Source of the DNA: an uncultured Coriobacteriia bacterium
GTDB taxonomy: Bacteria > Actinomycetota > Coriobacteriia > Coriobacteriales > QAMH01
Reading direction: 5' to 3'
Assembly: GCA_959608885.1 (NCBI GenBank)
Contig: CAUHSG010000003.1
Span: forward strand, 2,276 to 66,275
DNA: 64,000 nt
Position numbers and translations under genes: made by a program. Below the pieces are notes generated by a model. That model worked only from the letters and a program-made list of their open reading frames with translations, was not told the origin of the DNA and ran no database searches. Of this stretch, positions 11,013 through 61,387 are shown piece after piece; position 1 is the first letter of the stretch; every line of letters begins with the position of its first letter.

Positions 11013-12397
11013 GCGTGGCGGACGACCTCGAAGCGTTGGAGCGTGGTGCCGGGCTCGTCCGGCGCGATACCGGCCTTGCGGCAGGCGATACCAACTTGCT
11101 CCTCGACCGTGTCGACGCCATCGAGCATGGGTAACAGCAGGCCACGTCGCCCACCGCTGCTGACGATGACACCGTAGCGCTGCGGGTCAAGCTCGCCGGG
11201 TGAATCGATGTCCTCCGTCTCGCCAAGTACGTCGACGCTGATCTCGAGCTGATCGAGCTCGTCGGGGCGCACGGGATCGAAACGTGGATCCTCGCTGCAC
11301 GCCGAGATGCCGTTGCGGATGATCTCGTCGGCGATGCAGGACGTGACGGGGCTGATGGTGCCGATGCAACCACGTAGGCGTCCATGCTCGTGTAGGGATA
11401 CGAAGACTCCAGAGCGTTGTGCAAGCATGTCCTCGGGTAAGCCCTCGGGTCGGGGGAGGGGAGAGCGCTCGCGCACGAAGTGCTCGACGCTCGCGCGAGC
11501 CAATGCGACGTACTCGTCCTCATCCGCTCGCGACGCCTGTACGCGGGCGCGCTGCTCATCCTCGTAATGCTTGCCAAAGTGACGCGTGTCATCGTCTTCT
11601 GTCACGACGAACGAAGCGACGGCATAACCCACGCCAAAGGGACCTTCGTACGAGAGCAGGTGCGCCTCGACGCCCTGGCCGTCCAGAGCACCCGCCATGA
11701 TCTGGAACGAGCGCAGGCCGCACTCGGCGGCTTTGTCGGTGAAACTCTCGTCAAAGCTCAGCAGGCGCATGAAGTCGCCCCGTGACATGGCCTCGGTGAT
11801 TTGCTCGTCGAAGACGGGGCCTTCAGGCGCGAAGCCATACGGGCCATCATGGGTGAGCTTGTGCGAAAGGTCGCCGCTCGCGATGAGCACGGCGCGACGC
11901 CCAAGATCGTCGATGGCCCGGGTGATGAGATCGCCCAGGTGATAGTGCTCGACGGGGCCGTAGCCCGACAGTCCGATACGCACGACCTTGTAATCGCGGT
12001 AAAACTTGTTCACGAAGTAGAGTGGGATATAGGTCGCGTGGTCGATGGACGGGTCATGCTCGCCATCGGTGCCGGCGGGAAAGCCCTCAGCAGCGGCAAG
12101 CGACGCGATGCGATCGGCGAGCTCGGTGTCATAGGTACAGGCAAGGTTCGTCTCGCGCGCGCCAAAACGGTGCATGTCACCACGAGCCGACGCGCCCGGT
12201 GAGATGTGGAAGTAGTCGCGATACGCCGTTGCGTGCGGCGAGGTCACGATGATGGTCTGGGGTTCGAGCTCGGCAATCTGATACGCCACCTCGTCGTACG
12301 AATCGATGGTCGACTGGACGAGCTGTTCCTTGCCGCGGCCGACAGCCGGGATTATGAGCGGGGGATGCGGGACGATGAATGCTGCCTGGAGTGACAT
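11009..12397 (-). CDS. fusion of a class-III extradiol dioxygenase/Memo-like domain and an AMMECR1 domain (AmmeMemoRadiSam system protein A/B-like)
   Basis: The N-terminal half (FIVPHPPLIIP...SPHATAY...ASGDLSH) looks like the LigB/Memo fold. The C-terminal half carries the AMMECR1 signature (SGVFVSLHEHGRLRGCIGT). Confidence 0.85.
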   Translation of the reverse strand: MSLQAAFIVPHPPLIIPAVGRGKEQLVQSTIDSYDEVAYQIAELEPQTIIVTSPHATAYRDYFHISPGASARGDMHRFGARETNLACTYDTELADRIASLAAAEGFPAGTDGEHDPSIDHATYIPLYFVNKFYRDYKVVRIGLSGYGPVEHYHLGDLITRAIDDLGRRAVLIASGDLSHKLTHDGPYGFAPEGPVFDEQITEAMSRGDFMRLLSFDESFTDKAAECGLRSFQIMAGALDGQGVEAHLLSYEGPFGVGYAVASFVVTEDDDTRHFGKHYEDEQRARVQASRADEDEYVALARASVEHFVRERSPLPRPEGLPEDMLAQRSGVFVSLHEHGRLRGCIGTISPVTSCIADEIIRNGISACSEDPRFDPVRPDELDQLEISVDVLGETEDIDSPGELDPQRYGVIVSSGGRRGLLLPMLDGVDTVEEQVGIACRKAGIAPDEPGTTLQRFEVVRHA

Positions 12398-12476: not shown

Positions 12477-13754
12477 TTACTTCTGCTCCTCGTCAGTGGA
12501 AGAGGCATCGTCTCCGGAAGTATCCTGCTCGTTACCCGGCGTCTTCTCGTGATGCAGCTTATCCTCGACGTCTTCTTGGGCACGCTTGATGAAGCTTGGC
12601 ATCTTGCGGCTCTTCTTCGGCTTGGGGAGCTGGAAGAGGACGCCGTCTTCGGTCGCGATCTTCTTGCCGGTGATGAGCTCGTAATACGCGATGAAGATGC
12701 CTTGCAGCGCACCGATGACGGGAATCGAGAGCAGCATGCCCGGTATGCCACCCAGGGCACTGCCGATGAGGATGGCAACGAGGATGAGTGCGGGGTAGAC
12801 ATTGACCGAGCTCTTCATGAGCTTGGGTGAGACGATGTTGCCGATGACATTGTTGATGACCATGTTGACCACGATTGAGATGATGCAGACGAGTGGCGAG
12901 ACGAAGAGCGCGATGATTGCGACGATCGCGCACGAGACCATGGGGCCGATGTAGGGCACGAAGTACAAGATGCCGCAGAGGAAGCCCAGGACCACGGAGT
13001 AGGGTATGCCGAGGATGAGGAAGCACAGCCAGCTGGCGACGCCTGTGATGAGCGTGCAGAGCAGCGTCGATTTGGCCCAGCCGTAGACCGCGGTGCCGAA
13101 GGCGTTGGTCACGACGTCAATATCGTCCTGGTACTTGTCATCCACGAGACCGCGCACCTCGCGCGAGAGGACAGGGAGGTCGAGGAGAATCCAGAACGAG
13201 CAGATGAACGAGATGAAGGTGACGAGTATGACGTTGCCCGCGCTTACGATGCCGCCCATGACGCCATTTGCCAGACCGCTGGCCAGTGCGCCCGCTTGCT
13301 GGCGAATGAAGGATGCGGCCTGCGTGAGCAGCGAGTTGATGCTCTCGCCGTCGAGGAGCTGCGTCGAGGAGCTCGTCTTGGTGACGAAGTCCTGAATCTG
13401 TGCGAGATAGGCGGGGAGCTGTTGCGTGAACGAGGTGAGCTGCGAGACGATGGCCGGAACGAGCACCATGATGCATGCGACGATGACGGCGATGATGAGC
13501 AGGAAGGCAATCGTCGTGCCCCCCCAACGCGGGATGCCATGGCGTTCGAGTCTATTGACGAAGCCATGCAGCAGGAAGACGAGCAAAGCGGTCACGATGA
13601 TGACGGCGACGGCCTGCCAGATGATGCCGGCAATGTAGAGGATGACGCCGACGAGGATGCAGAGACCGACGATGGTCCAGGTGCGAAACGCCCGCAGACG
13701 CCACTTTGACTCGATGGCCTCTTGTGATTTGGCACTGTCTTGCGGGTTGCTCAT
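12477..13754 (-). CDS. AI-2E family transporter (PerM/UPF0118)
   Basis: 425 aa with about 8 TM segments. It has a GIPGMLLSIPVIGALQGIF-type C-terminal core and an acidic, hydrophilic tail. Confidence 0.85.
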   Translation of the reverse strand: MSNPQDSAKSQEAIESKWRLRAFRTWTIVGLCILVGVILYIAGIIWQAVAVIIVTALLVFLLHGFVNRLERHGIPRWGGTTIAFLLIIAVIVACIMVLVPAIVSQLTSFTQQLPAYLAQIQDFVTKTSSSTQLLDGESINSLLTQAASFIRQQAGALASGLANGVMGGIVSAGNVILVTFISFICSFWILLDLPVLSREVRGLVDDKYQDDIDVVTNAFGTAVYGWAKSTLLCTLITGVASWLCFLILGIPYSVVLGFLCGILYFVPYIGPMVSCAIVAIIALFVSPLVCIISIVVNMVINNVIGNIVSPKLMKSSVNVYPALILVAILIGSALGGIPGMLLSIPVIGALQGIFIAYYELITGKKIATEDGVLFQLPKPKKSRKMPSFIKRAQEDVEDKLHHEKTPGNEQDTSGDDASSTDEEQK

Positions 13755-30551: not shown

Positions 30552-30977
30552 CTAGTCGCTCACGTCGAGCAGCTTTACCCAGTAGACGATGTCCTTGCCT
30601 GCGAGGGGATGGTTGAAGTCGATGGTAGCGACCTGGTTTTCCACGCTCACCACCTTTGCCGGAATGGGCTCGATGTTACGCGGCGAAGTCCACCCGATGT
30701 ATTCGCCAACGGGTAGGTTTTCGCCGTTGGGCACCTTGTAGGTGGGGAAGTGCTGTACGGCGCTCTCGTCGTATTCGCCGTAGGCGTCTGCCGCCGCGAG
30801 TTCGACCGTGCGCTCCTCGCCCGGCTCCATTTCGAGTAGGACGTCTTCCAAGGCTTTCATGACCTGACGCCTGCCGAGGATTATCTCGTGCGGAGTGCCC
30901 TCGCAGTCGTCAAAGACCTCGCCGTCGGGAAAGCTGCCGCGATACAGGAAGCGCGCGGTTTGTCCCTTTTGCGCCAT
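30552..30977 (-). CDS. FKBP-type peptidyl-prolyl cis-trans isomerase, SlyD-like
   Basis: From MAQKGQTARFLYRGSFPDGEVFDD...ILGRRQVMKALEDVLLEMEPGEE...DFNHPLAGKDIVYWVKLLDV. The start is moved to 30977 because the ORF-track start lies inside a repeat. Confidence 0.85.
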   Translation of the reverse strand: MAQKGQTARFLYRGSFPDGEVFDDCEGTPHEIILGRRQVMKALEDVLLEMEPGEERTVELAAADAYGEYDESAVQHFPTYKVPNGENLPVGEYIGWTSPRNIEPIPAKVVSVENQVATIDFNHPLAGKDIVYWVKLLDVSD

Positions 30978-31004
30978 ATGACCGCTCCTTTCGTTGAGCA
31001 TTGG

Positions 31005-31045
31005 CAAAACTGGGACAAATGGACACGTCATTTGTCCCAGTTTTG
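31005..31045. repeat. type-A palindromic intergenic repeat (extended 17-bp stem)
   Basis: CAAAACTGGGACAAATGGACACGTCATTTGTCCCAGTTTTG. Confidence 0.85.
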
Positions 31046-33027: not shown

Positions 33028-34557
33028 ATGAACGAGGCACAATCGGACGCCGACGGTGACATCCAGGCCAATCGCAAGCCCATCGGTGGAAACGAGGCCG
33101 ATTTCGAGGCGGTGCTGATTGATGGCATCCTTGGATTCAGCCTGTCGATCGGCAATGCCATACTGCTGCTCGTCGGTTCCATATCCCATGCGCAGTCCAT
33201 CTTCCAAGCGGCGACCATGCTCGTCGCGTCGGCAGTCGTCGCGGCGCTGTTCTTCAAGATCGTCCAGCTCAAGACGGATGTCATTTCGGCGAACCTGCCG
33301 CGCGTGGTCTACGTATGCGGGCATGCGCTCTGCTTCCTGGTTTCGATCATAGGCATGTTCCTGGGCATCGATTACGTCACGGCTATCGCTGCGGCACTCG
33401 GTCTCGCCGACACCCTCATACTCTACGGGCGCTTTCTGGCCGCCCTTGCCCGAAAGGCCCTCATGCTCGTCGTGGACACGGCCTTTCTATATCCTGGCGT
33501 CTTGATGATGATCATCGTCAACGTTCCCGTTCCCTACGACACGATCGTGCTTTCGGTCATGGTGCTCGTTACGATCGTCGTCGCATTGCTCTTCGTCCGA
33601 CGTCACTACGATTTCGGCGAGCTCATAAGCGCTGCGGATTCAAAGGCCCGTAGCATCAAGGTCAAGGGAAACGTGCACACGCTCTTTCTCGTCGGCTTCA
33701 TGATCGCCGCGTTCCTGCTCTTCAACCCGCTGCCCTTCGGCATCGAAATGTCGAACGTGGCGCTCGGCCTTGCCTTTGCCATCGCGGGTCTGCTTTCCCT
33801 GATCATGCGACAGGTAAACGAACGCGGTTCGAAGGACGCACTCAGAAAGAGCATGGCGCTCGCCTCCGTGGTGCTGCTTTTGCCGCTCGTGCTCGTACCC
33901 GACGAGGTGAAGCTCGTGCTTCTCGCGTGTTATAGCTGCTTTGTCATTTTGGAGACGTTGACCATCCTCGATGCGATCGTTGAGACCGTGCGCTTCAACC
34001 TCATCGCCGCCATGTGGCTCATCGGCAAGGAGTGCTCGGTATTCTTCGCGGGCATGGGTGTGGGAGGATTGCTCTTCTCGCTGTTTCCATTCCTGGCGCA
34101 GTTGGTCGGTGACGTCGACGCGACGCTCATGCTCTGCATCGTGGTCGCGGTAATCTGCGCGTGGATGCAGATAAACGTTAACTATCAGATCTATCCTTTC
34201 GAGCCCATCATCGAAGAACCGGTTGATGACGAGGTGACTGCGCACATCGAACGCACGGGACGTCGCAAGGCCCAGTGGCATCAGAAGATCGATGCGGTGT
34301 GCGAGCAGTATCATCTCTCGCCGCGCGAGTGCGAGATTCTTCCCATCTTGCTCAGGGGACGCGACGCCAAGTACATCATGGACACCTTTTACATCTCACA
34401 GTCAACTGCGAAGACGCACATATATAACATCTATCGCAAGTTCGGCATCCACTCCCGTCAAGAGCTGCTCGACTTTGTCGAGGACATCGAGTTCATCGAT
34501 TTCGGCGTTTCCGATGAGCCCGTGGAGCGGGATGAGACGGATCAGGAGAAGAGCTGA
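33028..34557 (+). CDS. membrane-embedded LuxR-family transcriptional regulator (multi-TM N-terminal domain + C-terminal LuxR HTH)
   Basis: From ATG at 33028 there are ~400 aa of repeated hydrophobic helices, followed by LSPRECEILPILLRGRDAKYIMDTFYISQSTAKTHIYNIYRKFGIHSRQEL. The 5' part of the ORF-track entry (32419-33027) overlaps the MFS gene and is discounted. Confidence 0.85.
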   Translation: MNEAQSDADGDIQANRKPIGGNEADFEAVLIDGILGFSLSIGNAILLLVGSISHAQSIFQAATMLVASAVVAALFFKIVQLKTDVISANLPRVVYVCGHALCFLVSIIGMFLGIDYVTAIAAALGLADTLILYGRFLAALARKALMLVVDTAFLYPGVLMMIIVNVPVPYDTIVLSVMVLVTIVVALLFVRRHYDFGELISAADSKARSIKVKGNVHTLFLVGFMIAAFLLFNPLPFGIEMSNVALGLAFAIAGLLSLIMRQVNERGSKDALRKSMALASVVLLLPLVLVPDEVKLVLLACYSCFVILETLTILDAIVETVRFNLIAAMWLIGKECSVFFAGMGVGGLLFSLFPFLAQLVGDVDATLMLCIVVAVICAWMQINVNYQIYPFEPIIEEPVDDEVTAHIERTGRRKAQWHQKIDAVCEQYHLSPRECEILPILLRGRDAKYIMDTFYISQSTAKTHIYNIYRKFGIHSRQELLDFVEDIEFIDFGVSDEPVERDETDQEKS

Positions 34558-34825: not shown

Positions 34826-36064
34826 ATGTCTGATCAATCACTTGATAAGTCCAAGTGCATAGACGGCAGCTATGGGTGGGTAGTCGTGCTGTTCACCATG
34901 TTGGTGGGCTTCGTTCCGGGCTCCAACATGGCCAAGGCGATTTCGCTCGCACCAATTGTCTGCATGAACTTCCAGATCAACGAGGCAACCTTCGGTCTGA
35001 TCGTCGCGTCTTTCTACATCATGGGCTTCATCATGGCGTTCCCCACCACGGGCTTGGTTAACAAGCTCGGCATGAAGGGGTCCGTCGCCATCGCCGTCGG
35101 CTGCGGCATCATCGGCTCCATCATGGGCGCCATGGCCGGTACCAACCTCACGGTCTTCGTCGTCAGCCGCGTTATCGAGGGTGCGTCGTTCGGCATCATG
35201 GGCGTCGTTGGCGCATCGTCAATCGGCCCGTGGTTCTCGCCCAAGAAGCGCTCGCTTCCGCTGTCCATCTGGTCCATGTGGGTTGCCGTCTGCATGTGCG
35301 TCTGCCCGATTCTCTTCGGCTGGCTCAACGAGTCCATGGGCGTCGACATGGCGGGCATCTGGTGGGGTACCGCGGTCTACGACCTCGTCGTCGGCATCCT
35401 GTTCATCCTGTTCTATCGCAGGCCGCTCGACCTCGACAAGGTCGAGAACGAGGAGGATCCCACGGGTACCAAGAAGGCAAGCATCAGCCGCGCTCTGAAG
35501 AGCCCGATGCTGTGGGCGCTCGCCCTCATCTTCCTGTTCGACGAGGCCGCGTTCATGGCAATCAACGGCTTCATCGTCCAGTACCTTACGACGCAGCTCG
35601 ATGCGTCACTCGTTCTGGCAAACGCCATCTTCTCGTTGTTCGGCTTGATGGGTGCTCTCACGCCCCCCATTTCCGGCTGGATTACCCAGAAGTGGAACAA
35701 CCATCGCTGGGTCCTGCTCGTCGGCCTGTTCGTCGCGGTCATCTACACCGCCCTGGTCTTCCAGCTTAAAGACCCGATGCTCTACTATCCGCTGTCCATC
35801 CTTGCCGGTATCGTCGGCGGCGCCGTGCCCTCCATCCTGTGGCAGTTCACGCCCAACACGGTCGAGGATGCCGATATCCCCGCGGCTAACGCCTTCATGG
35901 CGTTTACGCAGAACATCGGCATGACCATCGGCGCGCTCATCATCGGCAACGCGATCGTCATGTGGGGTTGGAGCATGGGCTCCCTCATCGGCATGGTGCC
36001 CCTGTACATCATCTGCCTCATCATCTACTTCGCCTTTGGCGTCCAGAAGAAGCTCAAGCTCTAG
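34826..36064 (+). CDS. MFS transporter (oxalate/formate antiporter-like)
   Basis: ATG at 34826 follows an AGAGGAGGAG RBS. 412 aa with 12 hydrophobic segments. Confidence 0.85.
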   Translation: MSDQSLDKSKCIDGSYGWVVVLFTMLVGFVPGSNMAKAISLAPIVCMNFQINEATFGLIVASFYIMGFIMAFPTTGLVNKLGMKGSVAIAVGCGIIGSIMGAMAGTNLTVFVVSRVIEGASFGIMGVVGASSIGPWFSPKKRSLPLSIWSMWVAVCMCVCPILFGWLNESMGVDMAGIWWGTAVYDLVVGILFILFYRRPLDLDKVENEEDPTGTKKASISRALKSPMLWALALIFLFDEAAFMAINGFIVQYLTTQLDASLVLANAIFSLFGLMGALTPPISGWITQKWNNHRWVLLVGLFVAVIYTALVFQLKDPMLYYPLSILAGIVGGAVPSILWQFTPNTVEDADIPAANAFMAFTQNIGMTIGALIIGNAIVMWGWSMGSLIGMVPLYIICLIIYFAFGVQKKLKL

Positions 36065-36435
36065 TTTGCTTCGCGTGCGATGGGGTGCGCCGCTTGGGGC
36101 GGCCACCCCATTCGCGCGTTCTTTGTCCTTTGTGTAACTGGAACGGAATCCGAGATCGTTCATGTAAATCACCCGTTCACGGCCTTGTCTATAACCGACA
36201 TCAGCCGTGGAGTACGAGGGGATTTCGCAGGGGGACCATGATTTCCGCACCCATGTACGATTCTCAACTTGCGTCTCGGAACCGTAATTTTTGCATGTGC
36301 CGTGTTCCCTCGACGGCAATTGCAAATTCGAGCTGGGACGTGTCCTGGCTCAATGGACCGCCTTCCTCGCACAACGGCACGGGATTGTCCCGAGCCGCGG
36401 AAGGCATCCCGCCTCTTTTGAAAGGAGAGACGTGT

Positions 36436-36642
36436 ATGTGTTTCAGACCCGCAAGCTTTGAGTCCGAAGGTGACAACCCCTATTTCGTTCCCGGAGATCC
36501 CGAGGATGCCGCAGCCCCCGGTGCCCCCGGAGCCCCCGGCGCACCCGGCGCACCCGGAGCTCCCGCGGCACCTGGTGCCCCCACCGCTCCCGGAGCTCCC
36601 GCGGCACCGGGCGCACCCGCCGCGCCGGGCCAGCCGTCTTAA
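36436..36642 (+). CDS. small protein (68 aa): N-terminus MCFRPAS followed by 14 consecutive P-x-A triplets
   Basis: An AGGAG RBS lies 8 nt upstream of ATG at 36436. The protein reads MCFRPASFESEGDNPYFVPGDPEDAAAPGAPGAPGAPGAPGAPAAPGAPTAPGAPAAPGAPAAPGQPS. The N-terminus and synteny are shared with the 61160-61387 protein. It is hidden in the ORF track inside a spurious 226-aa ORF. Confidence 0.55.
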   Translation: MCFRPASFESEGDNPYFVPGDPEDAAAPGAPGAPGAPGAPGAPAAPGAPTAPGAPAAPGAPAAPGQPS

Positions 36643-36755
36643 TCGAGATGTCTCGTCGGGCACGTTCCGGTGCAGGCGCCCCCCCCGGTCGGTGAAAGCC
36701 GACTTGGGACACGAAGTGACAAGACAGGTTGAGAGAGAAGAGGAAAGGAAAGAGC

Positions 36756-39095
36756 ATGAAGATTTTCAAAGGTCAGGGCACTGCCGATCTTGGCAAGCCG
36801 TGGCGCTTCGAAGAAGACGGCCTCACCGTCACCCGCGGTTGCGCATGGTCTCCTCCGGGATGTCATCCGACCGGATGCGGTATCAAGACCTACGTGAACT
36901 CCAACGGCGAGCTCGTGCGCGTCGAGGGCGATGAGAACCATCCCATCACAAACGGCCGCCTCTGCGTCCGTTGCCTGACCATCCGCGATTACGTCTACAA
37001 TCCCGATCGCGTCCTGTATCCCATGAAGCGCGCTCGCGAGGACCGCGGCAAGAACAAGTGGGAGCGTATCACTTGGGACGAGGCGTATGACACCATCGCC
37101 GAGAAGGTAAAGTACTTCAAGGACAAGTATGGTGCCGAATCCATCCTGGTCATGGGCGGCACCGGTCGCGAGGGTGGCCCCATGCTTCCCGCATACGCGC
37201 ACGCATGCCTGGGTACCCCCAACGCGTGCTATACGCAGTCCGGCTATTCCTGCTACATTCCGCGTGTCGCGGGCACGACCTACGTCATGGGCGCGACCTA
37301 TCCCGAGATGGACTATGCCGGCGGTCTGCCCGGCCGCTATGACGACCCGATGTTCAAGCTTCCCGAGCTCATCGTGTTCTGGGGCAAGGAGCCCCTTCCG
37401 TCCAACGGCGACGGCCTGTTCGGTCACGCCGCCATCGACATGATGCGCCGCGGCTCCAAGCTCATGAGCATCGACCCGCGCGTCAACTGGGTCTCCACGC
37501 GTGCCGACTGGCACCTGCGCCTGCGTCCCGGCACCGACGCGGCCCTGGGCATGGCGATGCTCAACGTTATCATCGAGGAGGACCTCTACGACCACGACTT
37601 CGTCGACAAGTGGTGCTACGGCTTCGAGCAGCTCGCCGAGCGCGTCAAGGAGATGCCCGCCGAGAAGGCCGCCGAGATCTGCGACCTCGACGCGAACCAG
37701 ATTCGCGAAGCCGCTCGCGTCTACGCCGCGGCCAAGCCCGCGCAGATCGCGTGGGGCCTGGCCATCGACCAGAAGTCCAATGGCGTCCAGGCCGGCCACT
37801 GCATCATGGCCCTCGAGGCCATCACCGGCAACATCGACGTTCCCGGCGGCCAGCTCATCGGTGATGTCAACGACGGACTCGAGCTCGGCTTTGGCTGGAA
37901 CAACCTCGGCCCCGAGCTTCAGAGCAAGATCCTGGGCATCAAGGAGTACCCGGCCTATGTCGGCCTCGTTCTCAACGCGCAGTGCGACATGGTCCTCGAC
38001 GCGCTCGAGGCGGGCGACGACGCCAAGTACTATCCGTTCAAGATGGGCGTCTTCGAGGACACCAACTTCCTGGCCGGCACCTGTGCCGCCCAGCCCAAGC
38101 GCTGGCACGATGCCATGGTCAAGAACCTCGAGTGGTGCTTTGGCATCGACGTGTGGATGACCCCGACGATTCAGGCCACCTGCGAGATCTTCCTGCCGCT
38201 GTCGTCGACCGTGGAGCATGATACCGTCGTGTACACGCACTACGGCGCATCGCCGATCATGGCCGGTGCCGTCAACAAGTCCATCACGGTGGGTGACTGC
38301 AAGGGCGATTGCGAGATCTTCTACGAGCTCGGCCTGCGCTGCATGCCCATCAACTTCGAGAAGTACAAGGACTACTACGACTTCCTGGCCGATTACCGCC
38401 TTGCCTATAAGAAGTCCTTCGAGGAGCTGCGCGAGGAGGTCGTCCACCAGAAGACCGAGATGTGCGGCTACTACAAGTACGAGTCCGGTCGCCTGCGTCC
38501 CGACGGCATGCCCGGCTTCAACACCCCGACCGGCCGCGTCGAGCTCTACTCGACGATGTTCCGCCAGTTCGGCGAGGATCCTTTGCCGTACTACGAGGAG
38601 CCGCAGCTCTCGCCGGTGTCCACGCCCGAGAAGATGGAGGAGTATCCCTTTGTCCTCACGACGGGTGCCCGTACCTATTGCTACTTCCACTCGGAGGGCA
38701 AGCAGATCCCGTACCTGCGCGAGATGAATCCCGACCCCCTGATCGAGATCAACCCCGAAGACGCGCTCAAGCATGGCATCACCGATGGCCAGTGGGTCGA
38801 GGTTGCAAGCCCGTTTGGCAAATGCGTCTTGAAGGCCAAGGTTTCCCAGATCGTCAAGCCGGGTGTCGTGCATGCGCAGCATGGTTTCTGGTTCCCCGAG
38901 AAGGATCCCGAGGAGCCCAGCCTGTACGAGGTATGGCGTTCCAACATCAACGAGCTCATCCCTCACTTCATGGTCGGAAAGCTCGGATTCGGCGCGCCGT
39001 TCAAGTGCCTGATCTGCAGCGTGAAACCGGTGTCGGAGAACTATGACACCGACATGATGGAGGTTTGGGACCACTTCGGAAAGTTGGTGATCTAG
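36756..39095 (+). CDS. molybdopterin (bis-MGD) oxidoreductase catalytic subunit, paralog A; cytoplasmic; acetylene-hydratase-like clade (inferred)
   Basis: 779 aa from MKIFKGQ with no twin-arginine signal. The N-terminal Cys motif is CAWSPPGCHPTGCG...CVRC. MopB-type regions include YPMKRAREDRGKNKWERITWDEAY, GGTGREGG and LYDHDFVDKWCYGFEQLAERV. The C-terminal beta-barrel region contains VLTTGARTYCYFHSE...INPEDA...DGQWV. Confidence 0.92.
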   Translation: MKIFKGQGTADLGKPWRFEEDGLTVTRGCAWSPPGCHPTGCGIKTYVNSNGELVRVEGDENHPITNGRLCVRCLTIRDYVYNPDRVLYPMKRAREDRGKNKWERITWDEAYDTIAEKVKYFKDKYGAESILVMGGTGREGGPMLPAYAHACLGTPNACYTQSGYSCYIPRVAGTTYVMGATYPEMDYAGGLPGRYDDPMFKLPELIVFWGKEPLPSNGDGLFGHAAIDMMRRGSKLMSIDPRVNWVSTRADWHLRLRPGTDAALGMAMLNVIIEEDLYDHDFVDKWCYGFEQLAERVKEMPAEKAAEICDLDANQIREAARVYAAAKPAQIAWGLAIDQKSNGVQAGHCIMALEAITGNIDVPGGQLIGDVNDGLELGFGWNNLGPELQSKILGIKEYPAYVGLVLNAQCDMVLDALEAGDDAKYYPFKMGVFEDTNFLAGTCAAQPKRWHDAMVKNLEWCFGIDVWMTPTIQATCEIFLPLSSTVEHDTVVYTHYGASPIMAGAVNKSITVGDCKGDCEIFYELGLRCMPINFEKYKDYYDFLADYRLAYKKSFEELREEVVHQKTEMCGYYKYESGRLRPDGMPGFNTPTGRVELYSTMFRQFGEDPLPYYEEPQLSPVSTPEKMEEYPFVLTTGARTYCYFHSEGKQIPYLREMNPDPLIEINPEDALKHGITDGQWVEVASPFGKCVLKAKVSQIVKPGVVHAQHGFWFPEKDPEEPSLYEVWRSNINELIPHFMVGKLGFGAPFKCLICSVKPVSENYDTDMMEVWDHFGKLVI

Positions 39096-39443
39096 ATGAC
39101 AGCCTACGGACTGCTTATCGATTACGAGTTTTGCACGGGCTGCCAGTCTTGCGAGGTTGCGTGCAAGGAGATTCATAACATCCCCGTGGGGCAGTGGGGC
39201 ATTCGCGTTCTCGACGATGGCCCCTGGGAGTGCTCGGACGGCAAGTTCAACTGGAACAAGATTCCGACCCCGACCCGCCTATGCGACCTGTGCGTGGAGC
39301 GTACGGAAAAGGGCCAGCAGCCCTTCTGCGTGCATCATTGCCTGGCCGGCGTCATGCAATGGGGCACGGTCGAGGACCTTGCAAAGGAGCTCGAGGAGAA
39401 GCCGAACCAGGTGCTCTTCGTACCCAAGCCCTACCAGTATTAG
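39096..39443 (+). CDS. small 8-Cys ferredoxin-like subunit (115 aa) partnered with paralog A
   Basis: The ATG abuts the stop of paralog A. First motif is CTGCQSCEVAC (Cx2Cx2Cx3C). The second set is CDLC-x11-CVHHC. Confidence 0.9.
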   Translation: MTAYGLLIDYEFCTGCQSCEVACKEIHNIPVGQWGIRVLDDGPWECSDGKFNWNKIPTPTRLCDLCVERTEKGQQPFCVHHCLAGVMQWGTVEDLAKELEEKPNQVLFVPKPYQY

Positions 39444-39537: not shown

Positions 39538-40245
39538 ATGGACCAGCGGGAACTCGAAGTTCAAACCGAGGACAGATGCGACAACTATGCCATGCTGTCG
39601 CGCCTGTTTCGGAGCGAGGTCGACAAGGAACTCCTTGCCGACCTGATCGAAAGCCCCGTCGCCGAGTCGACGGGTAACGAGCTCTTTGACTCGGGCTACG
39701 CGCGCGTACGCGCATATCTGGACGCGATTGACGATCTCGATCGATTCAAGTCGGTGCTTGCCATTGACTACTGCCTGGCATTTCTGGGCTATGGCGTCGA
39801 CCCCGACAAGGCGGACGAGGCGGGTAGCAATGCCGCCTACCCATACGAGTCGATCTACCGTACCGGAAGCAAATCGCTGGGCGGAGACCACTGCGCCGAA
39901 GTGTCCGATGCGTTCCGCGCATGCATGTTCGCGCCCACGAGAGATCGCCTCATCGCGGACGACCACATCGCGTGCGAGCTCGAGTTCATGCAGTACCTGG
40001 CCAATAGCGAGCTTACCGCCCTGCGCGCGGGCGAGCTGGCGGCCGCCGCCGGGACGCGGAAAAAGGAACTCGAGTTTCTGGAGGGCCATCTGCTTGCGTG
40101 GATCGGCTCCTTCGGGGAAGTGGTCGCGAAGTTCGCCGAGACGGATTTCTACACCGGCCTGCTCGCCATGACGCAGGGTTGGCTCGAGCTCGATGCCGAG
40201 TATCTGCGCGAGGTCTGTACGACGGAGAGGGAGGGGGCGCGATGA
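39538..40245 (+). CDS. TorD/DmsD-family molybdoenzyme maturation chaperone
   Basis: NYAMLSRLFRSEVDKELLADL and EDHIACELEFMQYLA are TorD-like motifs. The start is taken at ATG 39538. Confidence 0.8.
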   Translation: MDQRELEVQTEDRCDNYAMLSRLFRSEVDKELLADLIESPVAESTGNELFDSGYARVRAYLDAIDDLDRFKSVLAIDYCLAFLGYGVDPDKADEAGSNAAYPYESIYRTGSKSLGGDHCAEVSDAFRACMFAPTRDRLIADDHIACELEFMQYLANSELTALRAGELAAAAGTRKKELEFLEGHLLAWIGSFGEVVAKFAETDFYTGLLAMTQGWLELDAEYLREVCTTEREGAR

Positions 40246-40562
40246 CGCAGGATCACGGGCCAGATGGCCGCAGCTGGAACAAGAGCGAGGTCGAGTATGA
40301 CCTTGGCGTTGCTGGCCCCGGTCAGAGCATCGTCATCACCATCACCCGTTCTGTCGGGGTCAAGATCATGGACCACGAGAATTACGAGCTCTACAAGGCA
40401 GATGAGGACTGCAGGGCCTTTTCGGGCCAGCTGACCTCGTCACCGTATCGATTCAAGGTGCCCCGCGAAGCGCGCTGGCACGTGATCATCAATCCGCACA
40501 CGTACTCGGGAACCGCCGAGTTCAACGTGAAGCTCATCGATGACGCGGTGCTTGGCGCCTGA
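40242..40562 (+). CDS. DUF1883-like small protein (106 aa)
   Basis: ATGA start/stop overlap with the TorD-like gene. The region EVEYDLGVAGPGQSIVITITRSVGVKIMDHENYELYKADEDCRAFSG...PYRFKVPREARWHVIIN resembles the DUF1883 pattern (recalled, not searched). Confidence 0.62.
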   Translation: MTQDHGPDGRSWNKSEVEYDLGVAGPGQSIVITITRSVGVKIMDHENYELYKADEDCRAFSGQLTSSPYRFKVPREARWHVIINPHTYSGTAEFNVKLIDDAVLGA

Positions 40563-43639: not shown

Positions 43640-44083
43640 ATGGAAGAGACCGAATCAGAAGAGAACCGCACGGGTATGTTGGCCTACATCCGCTATGAGG
43701 GGGGCATACTCGGCGAACGCCACGTGGACAAGCACCTGGACGAGCCGTTGCCCGTCCGCATCGGGGCGGGCCGCGTGGTCAAGGGCATTGACGATGCCCT
43801 GCACAAGATGCAGGTTGGCGAAAGCGCCACGCTCATCATTCCCCCCGAAGAGGGGTACGGCGATGCCGACCCCAAGCAGGTCAAGTGGTATCCGCGTTCG
43901 ATCATTCCGCATGGTTACGAAATCAAGAAGGACACGATGATCATGTGGGAAAGCGCTGATGGCCTCGCCAAGCGCCCCGCCATGGTGGTGGACGCGACCG
44001 AAGACACGGTGAAGATTGACATGAATCATCCCTATGCGGGCAAGACGCTCGAATACTGGGTCGAGCTCGTCGACCTCCAGTAG
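43640..44083 (+). CDS. FKBP-type peptidyl-prolyl isomerase, SlyD-like, embedded in the molybdoenzyme array
   Basis: From MEETESE: VRIGAGRVVKGIDDALHKMQVGESATLIIPPEEGYG...DMNHPYAGKTLEYWVELVDLQ. Confidence 0.85.
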   Translation: MEETESEENRTGMLAYIRYEGGILGERHVDKHLDEPLPVRIGAGRVVKGIDDALHKMQVGESATLIIPPEEGYGDADPKQVKWYPRSIIPHGYEIKKDTMIMWESADGLAKRPAMVVDATEDTVKIDMNHPYAGKTLEYWVELVDLQ

Positions 44084-44095
44084 GGAGCGGATGCA

Positions 44096-44374
44096 ATGTG
44101 CTATCCGTGCACGAACTGCGGGCGCTGCGGAAAGTTCGATCCCAGCAGCCCTCTGTATACCCCTCCGCCGAGCATTCCGTGCCTGAAGTGCGGCGGCATC
44201 GTCGACGCCACGACGGGCATATGCGAGCAGTGCGGAGACCAGGCGTTCACGCCCACGGGCGGCATGATGGCCAGCGCAAATAGCCTGCGTCCTGATGCCG
44301 TCGACGGCGATGACGCCGAGCATCCCCTGGGGGTGCGCGAGGAGAATCCGATCGAAGGAGGGATTGCCTCATGA
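44096..44374 (+). CDS. 8-Cys mini-protein (92 aa): CxxCxxCxxC plus a zinc-ribbon/rubredoxin-like CxxCG-x9-CxxCG
   Basis: MCYPCTNCGRCGKF...PCLKCGGIVDATTGICEQCGD. ATGA start/stop overlap with paralog C. Confidence 0.6.
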   Translation: MCYPCTNCGRCGKFDPSSPLYTPPPSIPCLKCGGIVDATTGICEQCGDQAFTPTGGMMASANSLRPDAVDGDDAEHPLGVREENPIEGGIAS

Positions 44375-57646: not shown

Positions 57647-58468
57647 TTAGCCGGCCGCGTAGAGTGACACGGGACCCATGTTGCGATCCTCGTCGACGGT
57701 CGACGCCTCGACCATGCGGGTCATGTAACCTTCGGCCTCGAAGTACACCTGCCAGTTACCGGCAGCGATCTGGTGGAACCAGAAGTCCCCGAAGTCGTCG
57801 GTCTGCGTGACCAGCACCTCACCGGTATCGACGTTCTGCGCCGTCACCTTGGCGCCAATCAGGACCTCGTCCTCTTCAGGATCGATGACGATTCCCGCCA
57901 GGAAGCGCTTGGGCAGGTTCAGGTAATGCATGCGTGGCCTGTCGCGATCGGCGCGCTCGGGCATGAGCGCCTCGGCCTGCTCGAGCTCCTCAGCGAACTC
58001 CTCCTCGTCGCCAAAGCGAATGGCTCCGTGCGGACATACGTCAACGCAATGGGGGATTTCGCCAGCGTCGATGAGATGGGCGCAGCCCGTGCACTTCTGG
58101 GGAATCTCGAGCTCCTCGTTCCAGAAAATCGCACCGTAGGGGCAGGCCTCCACGAGTTCCTTGTGGCCTTTCGCCTTGGAGGGGTCAATGATCACAAGGC
58201 CGTCGTCACGCTTGTACACCGCTTCGGGGGCGGCGCTCATGCATGGGGCGCCATCGCAATGCTGGCACATGTGCATGATGTATGCGATCTTTACCTTGGG
58301 GACTTGCCCGCGAATCCTTTCCTCGATGCGCGTCCAGAACTGGCCCGTGTCGGGCTGGGGTTTCGAATAGGGAAGCCACTCGTTATCGACGTGCTCGTCC
58401 TTGCAGGCCAGCTGGCAGTTGCGGCAACCGTTGCACTTGGCTGCGTCAAAGATGAAAGTCTTACCCAT
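57647..58468 (-). CDS. pyrogallol hydroxytransferase small (beta) subunit-like iron-sulfur protein with a C-terminal beta-sandwich domain
   Basis: 273 aa. CNGCRNCQLAC, CQHCDGAPC and CTGCAHL...CVDVCP ferredoxin motifs are followed by LAGIVIDPEEDEVLIGAKVTAQNVDTGE...DFGDFWF. The layout matches the BthL subunit of Pelobacter transhydroxylase as I recall it. Confidence 0.88.
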   Translation of the reverse strand: MGKTFIFDAAKCNGCRNCQLACKDEHVDNEWLPYSKPQPDTGQFWTRIEERIRGQVPKVKIAYIMHMCQHCDGAPCMSAAPEAVYKRDDGLVIIDPSKAKGHKELVEACPYGAIFWNEELEIPQKCTGCAHLIDAGEIPHCVDVCPHGAIRFGDEEEFAEELEQAEALMPERADRDRPRMHYLNLPKRFLAGIVIDPEEDEVLIGAKVTAQNVDTGEVLVTQTDDFGDFWFHQIAAGNWQVYFEAEGYMTRMVEASTVDEDRNMGPVSLYAAG

Positions 58469-58470
58469 GG

Positions 58471-61080
58471 TTATTCCCCCTCAACGATACGAGCTGTGGC
58501 AACGAGGCCGCATGCCGGGTCATACGCGCGCTCAAATGCCTCGGGATATTCCTGTGCGAGCTTGAAGACGTCTACTTTCTCCACGTTAACCAGGAAGCCC
58601 GAGGTAACCTCTCCGGCCGCGTTCTTGGAGGTGGTGGGGGTGGGGGCGATGAGGTTGTTCGCCCCACCGCGGTCAAGACCGCCCTCACCCAAGACGATGG
58701 TGTCGCAACGCGCACCGTGATCCTGATAGACGGCACCGGGCATGATGCGCTCGGAAACGAGCACGCCACCCAGGACGGCGCCACGTTCGTTGTAGATTTT
58801 CGCGACATCGCCCGTTTCGAGGCCGAGTTTGCCGGCATCGATGGGGTTGACCCAAAGGGGCTCATACAGATAGCCGTCGGGACCCTTCACCTTGCACGTC
58901 TCTATCTCGCGGAACCATGTGACGTCGTCATGTTGTGCGTGGACGCGGAAGTGTGGATGGTTGCTCACCAGAAGGAAGGGATACTTTCGACCACGCTCCA
59001 GGTATTGCCTTTCCTGATGTCCGGCGCCTTCGTCAATCCAGTGGGGGATGGGACCTCGCTCCTTGTCATCCGGGAAGTAGCTGGCGAGCGTCGTGGAGTA
59101 GTACTCCAGCTTGCCAGATGGGGTGCGGAGCGGATGACCTTCGGGATCCTCGTAGAACTCGATGAGGCCCGCCGGTATCTCCTTCCAATCCTCGCGGGTC
59201 GGGAAGGCGTAGTACTGGCGCTCCACGAACTCGTCGAAACTCAGGTCCTCGGGCGCACCGGAGGATTCGAAGCCAACCCTGATCCACTCCTCATCCGTCT
59301 TGCCACCCAGGTACTTGTCGTAGATGCCCTCGTAGATGCCCCCGTAGCTCTCCAGCTTCTTCGCGACGATGCCCACGGCCTCCTTGTCGGAGACGGATTC
59401 CCCGATGGGCTTGATGGCCTGCTTCTCGTAGAACACGACATTCCACTGGCCCGAGTCGTTGTCCGTGCCGATGTCCGCCGTCTCGAACTTGGTGTTGGTG
59501 GGCAGGATGATGTCGGCGAACATGGTGTCGTTCTCCATCCAGGGATGCTGGACGATGACCGTCTCGATGCTCTCGTGCCGAAGGGCGTCTTGCATCTTGA
59601 ATCCGCCGTTCCAGCAGGTTTCCCAGCAAGGCGAGTCGGACCAAACCATGTGGATGCGGCTTCCGCCCTCGGGCGGGAACGTGAACTCGAGGAACTGGTC
59701 CTCTCTCGGAAGACCGGCGTTTACGTGGCCATACCAGCTGATGGGCGGGTTCATGATGGCTTCGGGGATGCGGGTCTTGGGAATGAACGAGGGCTTGGTG
59801 CCGGTGACGAAACCTCGATAGGCGGCACCCAGGCTGGGGATGTTGGTGGAGGGGGGAAGCACATCCAGCGTCGGGATGCCGAAAAGCGTCCACTCGAGGA
59901 ACTTGAACTGGTTCGCTCCGGGTTTGCCAACGCCTTGCATGCCCAGGAGCGCTACCTCCAGACGTGCCGGCTCGTGGGCGAAGCAGCTGCGGATGAAGCT
60001 ACCGCCGTTGCAATGCGCGATGGATACCGCATGCTTTGCCCAGTAACGCGCGAGGGCCTTGATGGTGTATGCGGGAATCCCGCAGATCTTCTCGGCCCAC
60101 TTGGGCGTCTTGGGCACGCCGTCCTCGCCGCCCAGGACATAGTACTTGAAGTTCTCGAAGCCCACGGCATGCGTCTCGAGGTAGTCCTTGTCGTACGTAT
60201 CTTCCTTGATCCAGGTGTAGGCGATTGCGAGCTGCAGGGCGGCGTCGGTGTTGGGAAGCACGGGAATCCACTTGTCCGCATGGACGCCGTTGGCATAGTT
60301 GACGTCGGGCGCGATGTGGATTTGCCTCACGCCGATTTCCGTAAACCAGAAGCACAGGCGGCTTGCCATCTGTCCGCCCCATCCCAGTGGCGTCGTCTCG
60401 GGGTCGCATCCCCAGAACAGCACGGCATCGCCGTTTTCCGAGATGTCCTTGATGATGTTGTTCTGGAGGTTTTGCTGGCCGAGGGGATCCATGCCCCAGA
60501 TGTGCTTGGCGCCCCAGTACCAGCCTTCCCAGGAGTCCGGCTGACGGGATTGGATCGTGAATCCACCGCAAAGGTCCAGCAGCTGGGAGATGCAGCCGTG
60601 CGAGGCGTGGACGACCTTCGTCTCGCCGTGGCCGTCGATTTCCAGCAAGATGGATTCCGGACCGTATTCGTCGTGCATGCGCTTTATCTCGGCAGCGCAA
60701 ATCTCGGCCGCCTCGTCCCAGGAAATGCGCTCGTAATCAGACGACCCGCGGTTCTGGGGGTTGCGCTCGCCATCGGGGTCCCAATCGACGCGCTTCATGG
60801 GGTAGGGGATGCGGTTCTTGGAGTAGACGCGCTTTTTGTAGCATAGCGAGAGCGGGGACATGTGGGTCTTGAAGCCCGGCTCGAATACATGGCCCCTTGC
60901 CTCGATCTTCCAGGCATTCAGCTCCTCGGGGGTCTGATGCTCGTCAAAGTGGAAGGGACGAATGCGGATGATCTTATCGTTCTCCTCGTCGATGTCGACA
61001 GTGCAGGCGTTGCTCCCCAGGCCAAAGCTGTCAAAGCCCAGGCCCTTGATTATGGGAGTGCCCTTCACATCGTTGCTCAT
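58471..61080 (-). CDS. pyrogallol hydroxytransferase large (alpha) subunit-like molybdopterin oxidoreductase (no N-terminal Fe-S motif)
   Basis: 869 aa. RIPYPMKRVDWDPDGERNPQNRGSSDYERISWDEAAEI and PDSWEGWYWGAKHIWG closely parallel the AthL sequence as I recall it. There is no TAT signal. A strong GAGAGGAGAAGGAG RBS precedes it. Confidence 0.88.
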   Translation of the reverse strand: MSNDVKGTPIIKGLGFDSFGLGSNACTVDIDEENDKIIRIRPFHFDEHQTPEELNAWKIEARGHVFEPGFKTHMSPLSLCYKKRVYSKNRIPYPMKRVDWDPDGERNPQNRGSSDYERISWDEAAEICAAEIKRMHDEYGPESILLEIDGHGETKVVHASHGCISQLLDLCGGFTIQSRQPDSWEGWYWGAKHIWGMDPLGQQNLQNNIIKDISENGDAVLFWGCDPETTPLGWGGQMASRLCFWFTEIGVRQIHIAPDVNYANGVHADKWIPVLPNTDAALQLAIAYTWIKEDTYDKDYLETHAVGFENFKYYVLGGEDGVPKTPKWAEKICGIPAYTIKALARYWAKHAVSIAHCNGGSFIRSCFAHEPARLEVALLGMQGVGKPGANQFKFLEWTLFGIPTLDVLPPSTNIPSLGAAYRGFVTGTKPSFIPKTRIPEAIMNPPISWYGHVNAGLPREDQFLEFTFPPEGGSRIHMVWSDSPCWETCWNGGFKMQDALRHESIETVIVQHPWMENDTMFADIILPTNTKFETADIGTDNDSGQWNVVFYEKQAIKPIGESVSDKEAVGIVAKKLESYGGIYEGIYDKYLGGKTDEEWIRVGFESSGAPEDLSFDEFVERQYYAFPTREDWKEIPAGLIEFYEDPEGHPLRTPSGKLEYYSTTLASYFPDDKERGPIPHWIDEGAGHQERQYLERGRKYPFLLVSNHPHFRVHAQHDDVTWFREIETCKVKGPDGYLYEPLWVNPIDAGKLGLETGDVAKIYNERGAVLGGVLVSERIMPGAVYQDHGARCDTIVLGEGGLDRGGANNLIAPTPTTSKNAAGEVTSGFLVNVEKVDVFKLAQEYPEAFERAYDPACGLVATARIVEGE

Positions 61081-61159: not shown

Positions 61160-61387
61160 CTATGCGCCCGGCTTGGGCGGGGTCGGCACCGTGGGGACCT
61201 TGATTCCCGGGGCGGGAACGGCCGGAGCGCCGGGAGCGCCGGGTACGGTCGGGATGCCGGCCGAAGGAGGTGCGGGGTCGGCCTTGGCTCCGCAGTTGGG
61301 ACACTGGTCCAAGGTGGGATCGACCTCTGCCCCACATTTGGGGCATTTCACGGGGCCGGCATCAAGGGAAGGCGGTCTGAAGCACAT
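61160..61387 (-). CDS. small zinc-ribbon protein (75 aa): N-terminus MCFRPPS and a Pro-rich tail
   Basis: From ATG 61387 (AAAGGAAAG RBS): MCFRPPSLDAGPVKCPKCGAEVDPTLDQCPNCGAKADPAPPSAGIPTVPGAPGAPAVPAPGIKVPTVPTPPKPGA. It shares the MCFRP start and the PGAPGAP tail with the 36436 protein. Confidence 0.6.
   Translation of the reverse strand: MCFRPPSLDAGPVKCPKCGAEVDPTLDQCPNCGAKADPAPPSAGIPTVPGAPGAPAVPAPGIKVPTVPTPPKPGA

Follow-up and report, generated by a model that had tools for sequence, protein, structure and literature searches.

We analyse a stretch of 64,000 nucleotides (the window) from an uncultured Coriobacteriia bacterium (GenBank contig CAUHSG010000003.1) and, within it, a short open reading frame (ORF) at positions 36436-36642 of the forward strand, just upstream of a gene for a molybdenum- or tungsten-dependent (Mo/W) enzyme that we call MopB A. 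Comparison with related contigs shows this ORF to be a genuine gene, translated by every sign in its sequence, with a product of 68 residues that is predicted to be largely disordered. The product belongs to a family of small proteins that open with the invariant pentapeptide Met-Cys-Phe-Arg-Pro (MCFRP), and alignments show it to be the positional ortholog of ribbon-bearing MCFRP proteins; as read from these alignments, its four-cysteine (Cys4) zinc ribbon was lost through an in-frame deletion of ~28 codons. Across the loci that we compare, genes of the family stand in operons for cytoplasmic Mo/W enzymes that lack a twin-arginine (TAT) signal and carry the bis(pyranopterin guanine dinucleotide) cofactor (bisPGD), some acetylene-hydratase-like (AH-like) and some pyrogallol-transhydroxylase-like, and the MCFRP gene often heads a substrate-induced transcript. 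Neither the family nor its invariant head nor its link with enzymes of the catechol-dehydroxylase type appears to have been described; the protein is not a categorically new object, because ribbon-bearing relatives already stand in the databases under generic names.

A 68-residue gene and the selection on its reading frame

The gene and its immediate DNA setting consist of the following features:

36421-36427, forward strand: ribosome-binding site AAAGGAG, ending 8 nt 5' of the ATG
36436-36642, forward strand: the 68-residue ORF (stop included), a ribbon-less member of the MCFRP small-protein family, by translation
36436-36450, forward strand: invariant head Met-Cys-Phe-Arg-Pro, from the family alignment and 121 genome loci
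36475-36495, forward strand: NPYFVPG motif, from protein and DNA alignments with ribbon-bearing orthologs (SPYFVPG)
36509-36639, forward strand: imperfect DNA repeat encoding the (P-G/A/T-A)n tail, reported by Tandem Repeats Finder as a 9/18/27/36-nt repeat at 36509-36630
36643-36755, forward strand: 113-nt spacer between the ORF and MopB A, covered by terminator and Rfam scans

The translation reads MCFRPASFESEGDNPYFVPGDPEDAAAPGAPGAPGAPGAPGAPAAPGAPTAPGAPAAPGAPAAPGQPS up to the stop codon and is laid out as an MCFRP head, an acidic linker, the motif NPYFVPG and a (PGA)n tail; its sole cysteine is Cys2, and consecutive prolines are absent. The original prediction had picked out this gene as one hidden inside a larger ORF, and it is indeed enclosed by a mechanical ORF of 226 residues at 35962-36642. 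The good ribosome-binding site and the 113 nt separating the gene from the downstream enzyme (MopB A starts at 36756) can be read off as described, and an AGGAG-type site at equal spacing precedes every family member that we inspected. Tandem Repeats Finder likewise recovers the imperfect DNA repeat that had been proposed to underlie the tail. The description of the tail itself needs correction: its triplet periodicity stands, while the 14 P-x-A triplets are strictly 12, followed by PGQ and PS, and the tail spans 41 residues (P28-S68) instead of 42, with the proline phase beginning already at P19. Four of the 13 triplets (PAA, PTA, PAA and PAA) are without glycine. The surrounding DNA shows neither a terminator-like site (scanned over 35900-36900) nor an Rfam match (scanned over 35500-37500).

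Gene callers pass over this ORF: on all four metagenome contigs that carry a 100%-identical MopB A they leave a 655-nt 'intergenic' gap in its place, and the exact 68-residue sequence has no match in a collection of ~15 billion proteins. The ORF is nonetheless intact in every relative found, namely on three contigs from a look-up and on seven more that came from scanning metagenomes for the pattern of the ribbon-less protein; each of these seven ORFs stands directly 5' of a MopB A ortholog with 90.6-100% identity. The small protein occurs in these strains at lengths of 56, 62, 68 and 71 residues, so that the repeat changes its copy number by multiples of three nucleotides; every length variant is in frame, and none departs by a non-multiple of three.

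The quantitative case comes from the diverged relatives L140 and L146. Between them and the window, nucleotide differences fall at codon positions 1/2/3 in the numbers 2/0/35 and 2/0/38, amounting to 34-37 synonymous and 2 non-synonymous codon changes. In the non-repetitive codons 1-27, where the repeat plays no part, there are 11-12 synonymous changes and 0 non-synonymous ones, and the 60 nt directly 5' of the ORF differ from this lineage at 26 sites. The synonymous excess shows that this frame, together with its tail, is under strong purifying selection: with an intact ORF and synonymous-biased changes, what related genomes conserve is the ORF and not the DNA alone. Codon-position bias, ribosome-binding site, in-frame indels and homology to a family thus bear out the original view that the ORF is real. 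A GC-rich tandem repeat that merely happens to be open in several frames could account for the overlapping ORFs in other frames and on the opposite strand and for the omission by gene callers, but it sits badly with differences of 2/0/35-38 at the three codon positions, with the ribosome-binding site, with indels that keep the frame and with homology to more than 230 proteins, and on these grounds we regard it as effectively excluded, with a vanishingly small residual chance.

The MCFRP family and the loss of the zinc ribbon

Homology searches with both MCFRP genes of the window (the second is described below) return more than 130 small proteins, nearly all with the MCFRP start. A DNA pattern scan over one genome per species finds at least 119 loci, virtually all of them small ORFs of MCFRP build; 121 genome loci (L001-L119) are used for the counts given here. 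A profile search of 1.84 billion cluster representatives gives 296 matches at E <=1e-10, of which the best 150 include 81 further MCFRP proteins, so that the sequences fetched exceed 230 in total. Within the window the MCFRP DNA pattern occurs at two sites only, with 0 expected from 100 shuffles.

The common architecture is the MCFRP head, one to four CPxCG...CPxC(G/K) zinc ribbons in nearly all members (the range across the family is 0 to 4), an acidic linker and a tail, which is A-P-G-A-P-K-rich in Coriobacteriia and short and K- and E-rich in Bacillota, Desulfobacterota and Chloroflexota. No residue of the head varies in the family alignment or across the 121 loci listed, and its conservation exceeds that of the ribbon cysteines. 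Its Cys and Phe codons are divided ~50/50 between synonyms at these loci, which argues that the constraint acts on the protein. As a separate observation, Arg4 is encoded by AGA at 102 of the 121 loci listed, by AGG at 13 and by CGN at 6, and Pro5 by CCA at 66 of the 121; if the hosts are mostly high-GC, as presumed, these are rare codons, and the bias may come from AT-rich 5' ends or from a decoding or RNA constraint. A programmed frameshift at UUU-AGA can be discarded since half of the genes use TGC/TTC, and EF-P-dependent stalling since there are no consecutive prolines.

The original prediction had noted that the window copy at 36436 lacks the CPxCG knuckles that the second copy has, and this is correct; the 68-residue protein does not match PF13240, PF13248 or PF12773 at E <=1. 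The reason emerges from its syntenic orthologs. The window shares with the loci of P0044, P0076 and L012 the gene order FKBP (reverse strand), LuxR, MFS, small gene, MopB, 115-residue Fer4 and NarJ-like, and farther 3' MopB, Fer4 and FKBP follow in the same order; the neighbouring MopB is 90% identical to MopB A beside P0076 and 94% in L012. The small proteins of these three loci carry a ribbon and then SPYF(V/I)PG. Set against them in both protein and DNA alignments, the ribbon-less form has a gap of ~28 residues that comprises exactly the ribbon, while MCFRPA, NPYFVPG and the tail are kept, and NPYFVPG marks the 3' edge of the deletion. The missing knuckles are thus explained by an in-frame deletion relative to ribbon-bearing orthologs. 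L141 is a more divergent ribbon-less ortholog (MCFRPATIETSGDEDNPYFVPGTPGAPG...) in which the MCFRP head, the motif and the tail are all kept; other ribbon-less examples are P0071, the only one among the fetched proteins, and the L140-L146 orthologs. Because the ribbon-less form is under selection, the ribbon is dispensable for at least part of the function, and the window copy, a natural minimal version, points to head and tail, not the ribbon, as essential.

Database annotation offers little beyond this. Members are named 'zinc-ribbon domain-containing protein' or 'hypothetical protein'; Pfam and NCBIfam hold no dedicated model for the family and return only generic zinc-ribbon, collagen and ribosomal-protein noise; and a PDB sequence search gives no matching chain and no solved relative. 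A literature search on 'MCFRP' produces unrelated matches only (carbon-fibre composites, a Babesia antigen), a search of the searchable library combining dehydroxylase, molybdopterin and zinc ribbon turns up nothing on the family, and the libraries searched contain no published function for MCFRP proteins.

Two candidate fusions that might have tied the family to a partner do not stand up. One is a 550-residue ORF at L040 (Raoultibacter timonensis NZ_LT964679.1, oriented start 4746), in which MCFRP head, ribbon and Pro-rich linker run on into a flavoprotein-like segment whose FAD-binding N-terminus seems, by eye, to be missing; as a Rosetta-stone fusion it is probably spurious, a rearrangement or pseudogene. 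The other, P0155 (884 residues), is without MCFRP head and ribbon and looks like a clustering artefact.

Linkage to Mo/W enzyme operons

The original prediction tied the small gene to molybdoenzymes, and the wider sample supports this strongly: of the 25 loci flanked by 3 kb or more of sequence on either side, 24 carry a MopB on the same strand no farther than 3 kb away. A MopB homolog lies within the same 8-kb block at 90 of the 121 loci listed, and the nearest one is on the same strand at 84 loci and on the opposite strand at 6 (p = 1e-18). The MopBs directly downstream are AH- or AhtL-like in 27 of 27 cases, and a twin-arginine signal is absent from them, bar one regular-expression match in L026 that lies 5' of the aligned region. 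The linkage holds in Bacillota, Desulfobacterota and Chloroflexota too, and every subfamily of the small protein keeps to a single MopB clade (Mantel r = 0.85, 0/2000 permutations). Position within the operon varies: about 45 of the 121 members listed lie 3' of a MopB-Fer4 pair with no MopB after them, and the commonest upstream neighbour is the gene for the small 4Fe-4S subunit (24 loci), others being genes for trigger-factor-like proteins, MFS transporters and LuxR regulators.

Expression data are available for one such operon. At L057 (Gordonibacter pamelaeae) an MCFRP gene lies ~225 nt 5' of a MopB whose N-terminus is that of the published enzyme Dodh. The order there is LuxR, a Trigger_C-like gene (241 residues), P0135 (MCFRP, 78 residues), Dodh (788 residues) and Fer4 (118 residues), followed by a second 78-residue zinc-ribbon protein, an MFS gene and an 83-residue protein, an arrangement that corresponds to the locus tags C1877_13920 through C1877_13885. 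In published RNA-seq data, 3,4-dihydroxyphenylacetic acid (DOPAC) induces C1877_13910, a 'Hypothetical_protein', with log2 fold changes (log2FC) of 10.27 and 7.33, and dodh with 10.81 and 7.2, while C1877_13915, directly upstream of C1877_13910, reaches a log2FC of only 3.39 (PMC7028382). By the mapping of gene order, C1877_13910 appears to be the P0135 gene, ~1000-fold induced together with dodh, and the MCFRP gene would then open the inducible dodh transcript. In the literature, the Gordonibacter-type dehydroxylases are said to have two subunits and an MFS transporter gene close by, and the part of this literature that we examined makes no mention of an MCFRP small protein; for related E. 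lenta dehydroxylases, accessory genes are needed for activity (PMC11887054).

Several further genes of this regulon deserve mention in their own right. Two small zinc-ribbon proteins of the G. pamelaeae dodh operon, on L138 at 11195-11431 (MARQEKGGFRPPPLGKILWKCTECG..., with an internal GFRPP that resembles the MCFRP head) and 13351-13602 (MSAIICPFCGK..., with a hydrophobic C-terminal stretch like a transmembrane helix), correspond by gene order to C1877_13895 and C1877_13885, with log2FC of 10.1 and 8.9. The DOPAC regulon of G. pamelaeae 3C also includes a rimI-like N-acetyltransferase in the same neighbourhood (C1877_13865, log2FC 8.92; PMC7028382) and a G3E-family GTPase metallochaperone (C1877_07205, log2FC 8.99; PMC7028382), possible leads for N-terminal modification or metal delivery.

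In the window itself there are six MopB genes, A-D on the forward and E and F on the reverse strand. The features around the two MCFRP genes are:

33028-34557, forward strand: LuxR/GerE-type regulator, 509 residues; Pfam GerE, position transferred from the gene calls on L122/L123
34826-36064, forward strand: MFS transporter 5' of the 68-residue ORF; Pfam MFS_1, gene calls mapped from L122/L123
36756-39095, forward strand: MopB A, 779 residues, acetylene-hydratase-like Mo/W-bisPGD enzyme without TAT signal; Pfam Molybdop_Fe4S4, Molybdopterin and Molydop_binding
39096-39443, forward strand: small 4Fe-4S subunit, 115 residues; Pfam Fer4_11 and Fer4_2
39538-40245, forward strand: NarJ/TorD-type chaperone (Nitrate_red_del), 235 residues; PF02613, E = 1.9e-18
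40242-40562, forward strand: DUF1883 protein, 106 residues, between the NarJ-like gene and MopB B; E = 7e-16
44096-44374, forward strand: small Cys-rich ORF with the start MCYPC, 92 residues (MCYPCTNCGRCGKFDPSSPLYTPPPSIPCLKCGG...CEQCG...), overlapping the MopB C start by 4 nt
57647-58468, reverse strand: beta subunit of MopB E, BthL-like; Fer4_11 and CarboxypepD_reg
58471-61080, reverse strand: MopB E, AhtL-like (homologous to the large subunit of pyrogallol transhydroxylase); Pfam AhtL-like_1st
61160-61387, reverse strand: second MCFRP member, 75 residues, with intact CPxCG...CPxCG ribbon; Pfam Zn_Ribbon_1
61824-64000, reverse strand: MopB F, running off the window end; full gene of 762 residues on the related contig L120

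The best PDB match of MopB A is acetylene hydratase (2e7z, E = 7e-83), and the metal-ligand cysteine aligns. The second MCFRP gene, with its PGAPGAP tail, is confirmed where the original prediction had it, at 61387-61160 on the reverse strand; its product reads MCFRPPSLDAGPVKCPKCGAEVDPTLDQCPNCGAK..., and it lies 79 nt 5' of MopB E. The gene on its other side is the Fer4 partner of MopB F. The product scores 26.8 bits against PF13240 (Zn_Ribbon_1; cut-off 25), and has a 99%-identical relative, P0001, that is called as a gene on L120 and L121. In an AlphaFold2 monomer of this copy the ribbon has a moderate confidence (pLDDT ~75) and the tail, below 55, is predicted to be disordered. As the full-length gene on L120 indicates, the 709-residue ORF listed for MopB F begins at an internal ATG.

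The MCYPC ORF resembles the MCFRP proteins in opening with Met-Cys-aromatic. It has 16 homologs, and all 14 that were read have the MCYPC start and CGRCGKF...PLYxPPP...C-x-x-CG...C-x-x-CG; one of the homologs is a 'hypothetical protein' of Gordonibacter sp. 28C, and no Pfam family matches the ORF above threshold. The DUF1883 protein is conserved on related contigs. The window also encodes FKBP-type peptidyl-prolyl isomerases (PPIases) at 43640-44083 on the forward and 30552-31031 on the reverse strand. FKBP-type PPIases and Trigger_C proteins recur in MopB operons (window, L126, L127, L134, L135, L138), and a trigger-factor-like gene adjoins the MCFRP gene at 11 loci; dedicated folding helpers beside a Pro-rich small protein may be more than coincidence.

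Two variations of the operon pattern stand apart. At L054, L061 and L084 two different MCFRP genes point away from each other in a head-to-head arrangement, and an AH-like MopB of its own comes after each; in these divergent twin units the other unit's MopB lies ~720-800 nt upstream on the opposite strand. In the MopBs 3' of P0064-type small proteins (L066, L073, L077, L082, L094, L130-L133), SNTWSPPGSHPVGYG replaces CAWSPPGCHPVGCG: the N-terminal Fe4S4 cysteines of this clade are replaced and Pfam Molybdop_Fe4S4 is not found, so these may be AH-like enzymes without an FS0 cluster.

Possible functions and comparison with known systems

What could such a protein do? We give an even chance to a role in trans: the protein would assist the enzyme complex as a biogenesis or assembly factor, or join it as a small extra subunit, in either case through its N-terminal Cys head. 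Removal of the initiator Met would expose a free N-terminal cysteine as the working end, which would bind a metal or cofactor or dock into the catalytic subunit, and the ribbon(s) and Pro-rich tail would be modules for docking or spacing, open to loss or multiplication. Action in trans is suggested by the ~45 members that lie 3' of MopB-Fer4, by a spacer without terminator or riboswitch and by selection over the whole protein, and NarJ-like, FKBP and trigger-factor-like genes recur in MCFRP operons, a context of maturation factors.

A number of points weigh against this proposal. The N-terminal-Cys mechanism is an analogy drawn from HypC and CooT; in Pfam and NCBIfam we detect no homology to HypC, to CooT or to the redox enzyme maturation proteins (REMPs). 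MopB A keeps its own Cys metal ligand, so a ligand supplied in trans is not needed; the notion that Cys2 replaces a missing ligand of MopB A is ruled out, the Cys aligned with the tungsten ligand of acetylene hydratase being present. Only two of the six MopBs of the window have an MCFRP gene, and a third has the MCYPC protein instead, which makes a strict 1:1 subunit role doubtful. To this we add that the literature describes the Gordonibacter-type enzymes as having two subunits, and that C1877_13910 is identified with the MCFRP gene by gene order, not by a sequence match.

The protein could instead be a regulatory adaptor, disordered and with a protease adaptor, a LuxR-type sensor in the membrane or a PPIase of the FKBP or trigger-factor-like kind as its binding partner, in which case it would control induction or turnover and not assembly. 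LuxR, FKBP and trigger-factor-like genes are recurrent neighbours, the tail is PxxP-rich, N-terminal residues often serve as degradation or modification signals, and the rimI-like C1877_13865 is co-induced in the dodh regulon. The linkage to MopB, however, persists outside Coriobacteriia in small proteins without a PGA tail, and the small-protein subfamily tracks the MopB clade, which leaves this an improbable account.

A second alternative would make the gene a cis-acting leader peptide or upstream ORF, whose translation, slow at AGA or in the Pro-rich repeat, tunes the downstream MopB, the peptide itself having no function in trans. Both here and at dodh the operon opens with the small gene, the spacer to MopB is a short 113 nt, and AGA at Arg4 (102/121) and CCA at Pro5 (66/121 loci listed) would be slow in hosts presumed to be mostly high-GC. 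We give it little chance: purifying selection spans all 68 residues including the tail, most family members contain a folded zinc ribbon, ~45 of the 121 members listed are 3' of MopB-Fer4 with no MopB to follow, neither terminator nor attenuator (35900-36900) nor Rfam element (35500-37500) is found, and there are no consecutive prolines that need EF-P.

Similarly poor prospects attach to a small redox or electron carrier, in which CPxCG...CPxCG binds iron as a mini-rubredoxin and feeds the 4Fe-4S subunit of a reductive dehydroxylase. The knuckle motifs belong to the rubredoxin/zinc-ribbon type, a Fer4 gene often stands directly 5' of the small gene, and dehydroxylases need an electron donor whose identity is not established (PMC7028382). 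Such a carrier is hard to reconcile with strong purifying selection on a form without the ribbon, with a head more conserved than the ribbon cysteines, with a ribbon number that varies from 0 to 4, and with the absence of a Pfam rubredoxin match at threshold and of a solved relative in the PDB.

Extending the trans-acting reading, MCFRP and MCYPC proteins might together make up a new class of proteins, dedicated to partnering cytoplasmic acetylene-hydratase-type Mo/W enzymes as either cofactor-insertion factors that act through a free N-terminal Cys or a third subunit, and be required for Gordonibacter-type catechol dehydroxylase activity. We hold this broader claim tentatively, as rather unlikely; if true, it would help to explain why dehydroxylases are difficult to produce in standard hosts. 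Dopamine, DOPAC, lignans, catechins and hydrocaffeic acid are substrates of the catechol dehydroxylases found in gut Coriobacteriia, and the bottleneck of the field is the production of active enzyme. The MCFRP gene heads or follows dehydroxylase-type operons, co-varies with the enzyme clade and is sometimes unannotated altogether; should it encode an assembly factor or subunit, adding it to expression constructs would be an immediate and cheap test, and the strictly invariant pentapeptide at its N-terminus would count as a novel functional motif.

Known systems resemble the MCFRP proteins in part. The (PGA)n tail is equivalent to (G-A-P)n, a large part of it having Gly as each third residue, and so recalls bacterial collagen-like (G-X-Y)n proteins and Ala-Pro linkers. 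It differs from collagen in having 13 triplets, four of them without Gly, no trimerisation domain and a predicted disorder, and the protein scores 21.8 bits against Pfam Collagen (PF01391), below the cut-off of 27.2. Transcription-attenuation and leader systems always stand upstream of the gene they regulate and are defined by a terminator/antiterminator or riboswitch structure that we do not find here, and many MCFRP members lie 3' of MopB.

Closer in kind are HypC/HybG, which act in NiFe-hydrogenase maturation, and CooT, the nickel chaperone of carbon monoxide dehydrogenase, small proteins in which a conserved Cys2 is the working residue. The likeness lies in a size of 60-90 residues, a Met-Cys start with a Pro a few residues later, and a place beside metalloenzyme and maturation genes. 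HypC has an OB-fold and CooT an Sm-like fold, whereas the MCFRP family is a zinc ribbon or disordered, and the small ORF has no match to PF01455 (HypC/HupF) in Pfam at E <=1 or in NCBIfam at E <=0.01, so that the analogy is one of mechanism only. NarJ/TorD/DmsD and DadhD-H are, like the MCFRP proteins, operon-encoded and would share with them the role of enzyme-specific helpers of the DMSO-reductase superfamily; DadhD-H are required for Dadh activity in E. lenta (PMC11887054). REMPs (PF02613) differ in being all-helical and ~200 residues long; the 68-residue ORF has no match to PF02613 (Nitrate_red_del), and one REMP is encoded separately in the window operon (39538-40245). The nearest counterparts are entries of Gordonibacter, Raoultibacter, Adlercreutzia and Enterorhabdus (WP_123673494.1, P0135), which have in common with the window copy the MCFRP head, a P/A/G-rich tail and the position in an AH-like MopB operon; the window copy differs from them in that it is without the ribbon and is skipped by gene callers on related contigs.

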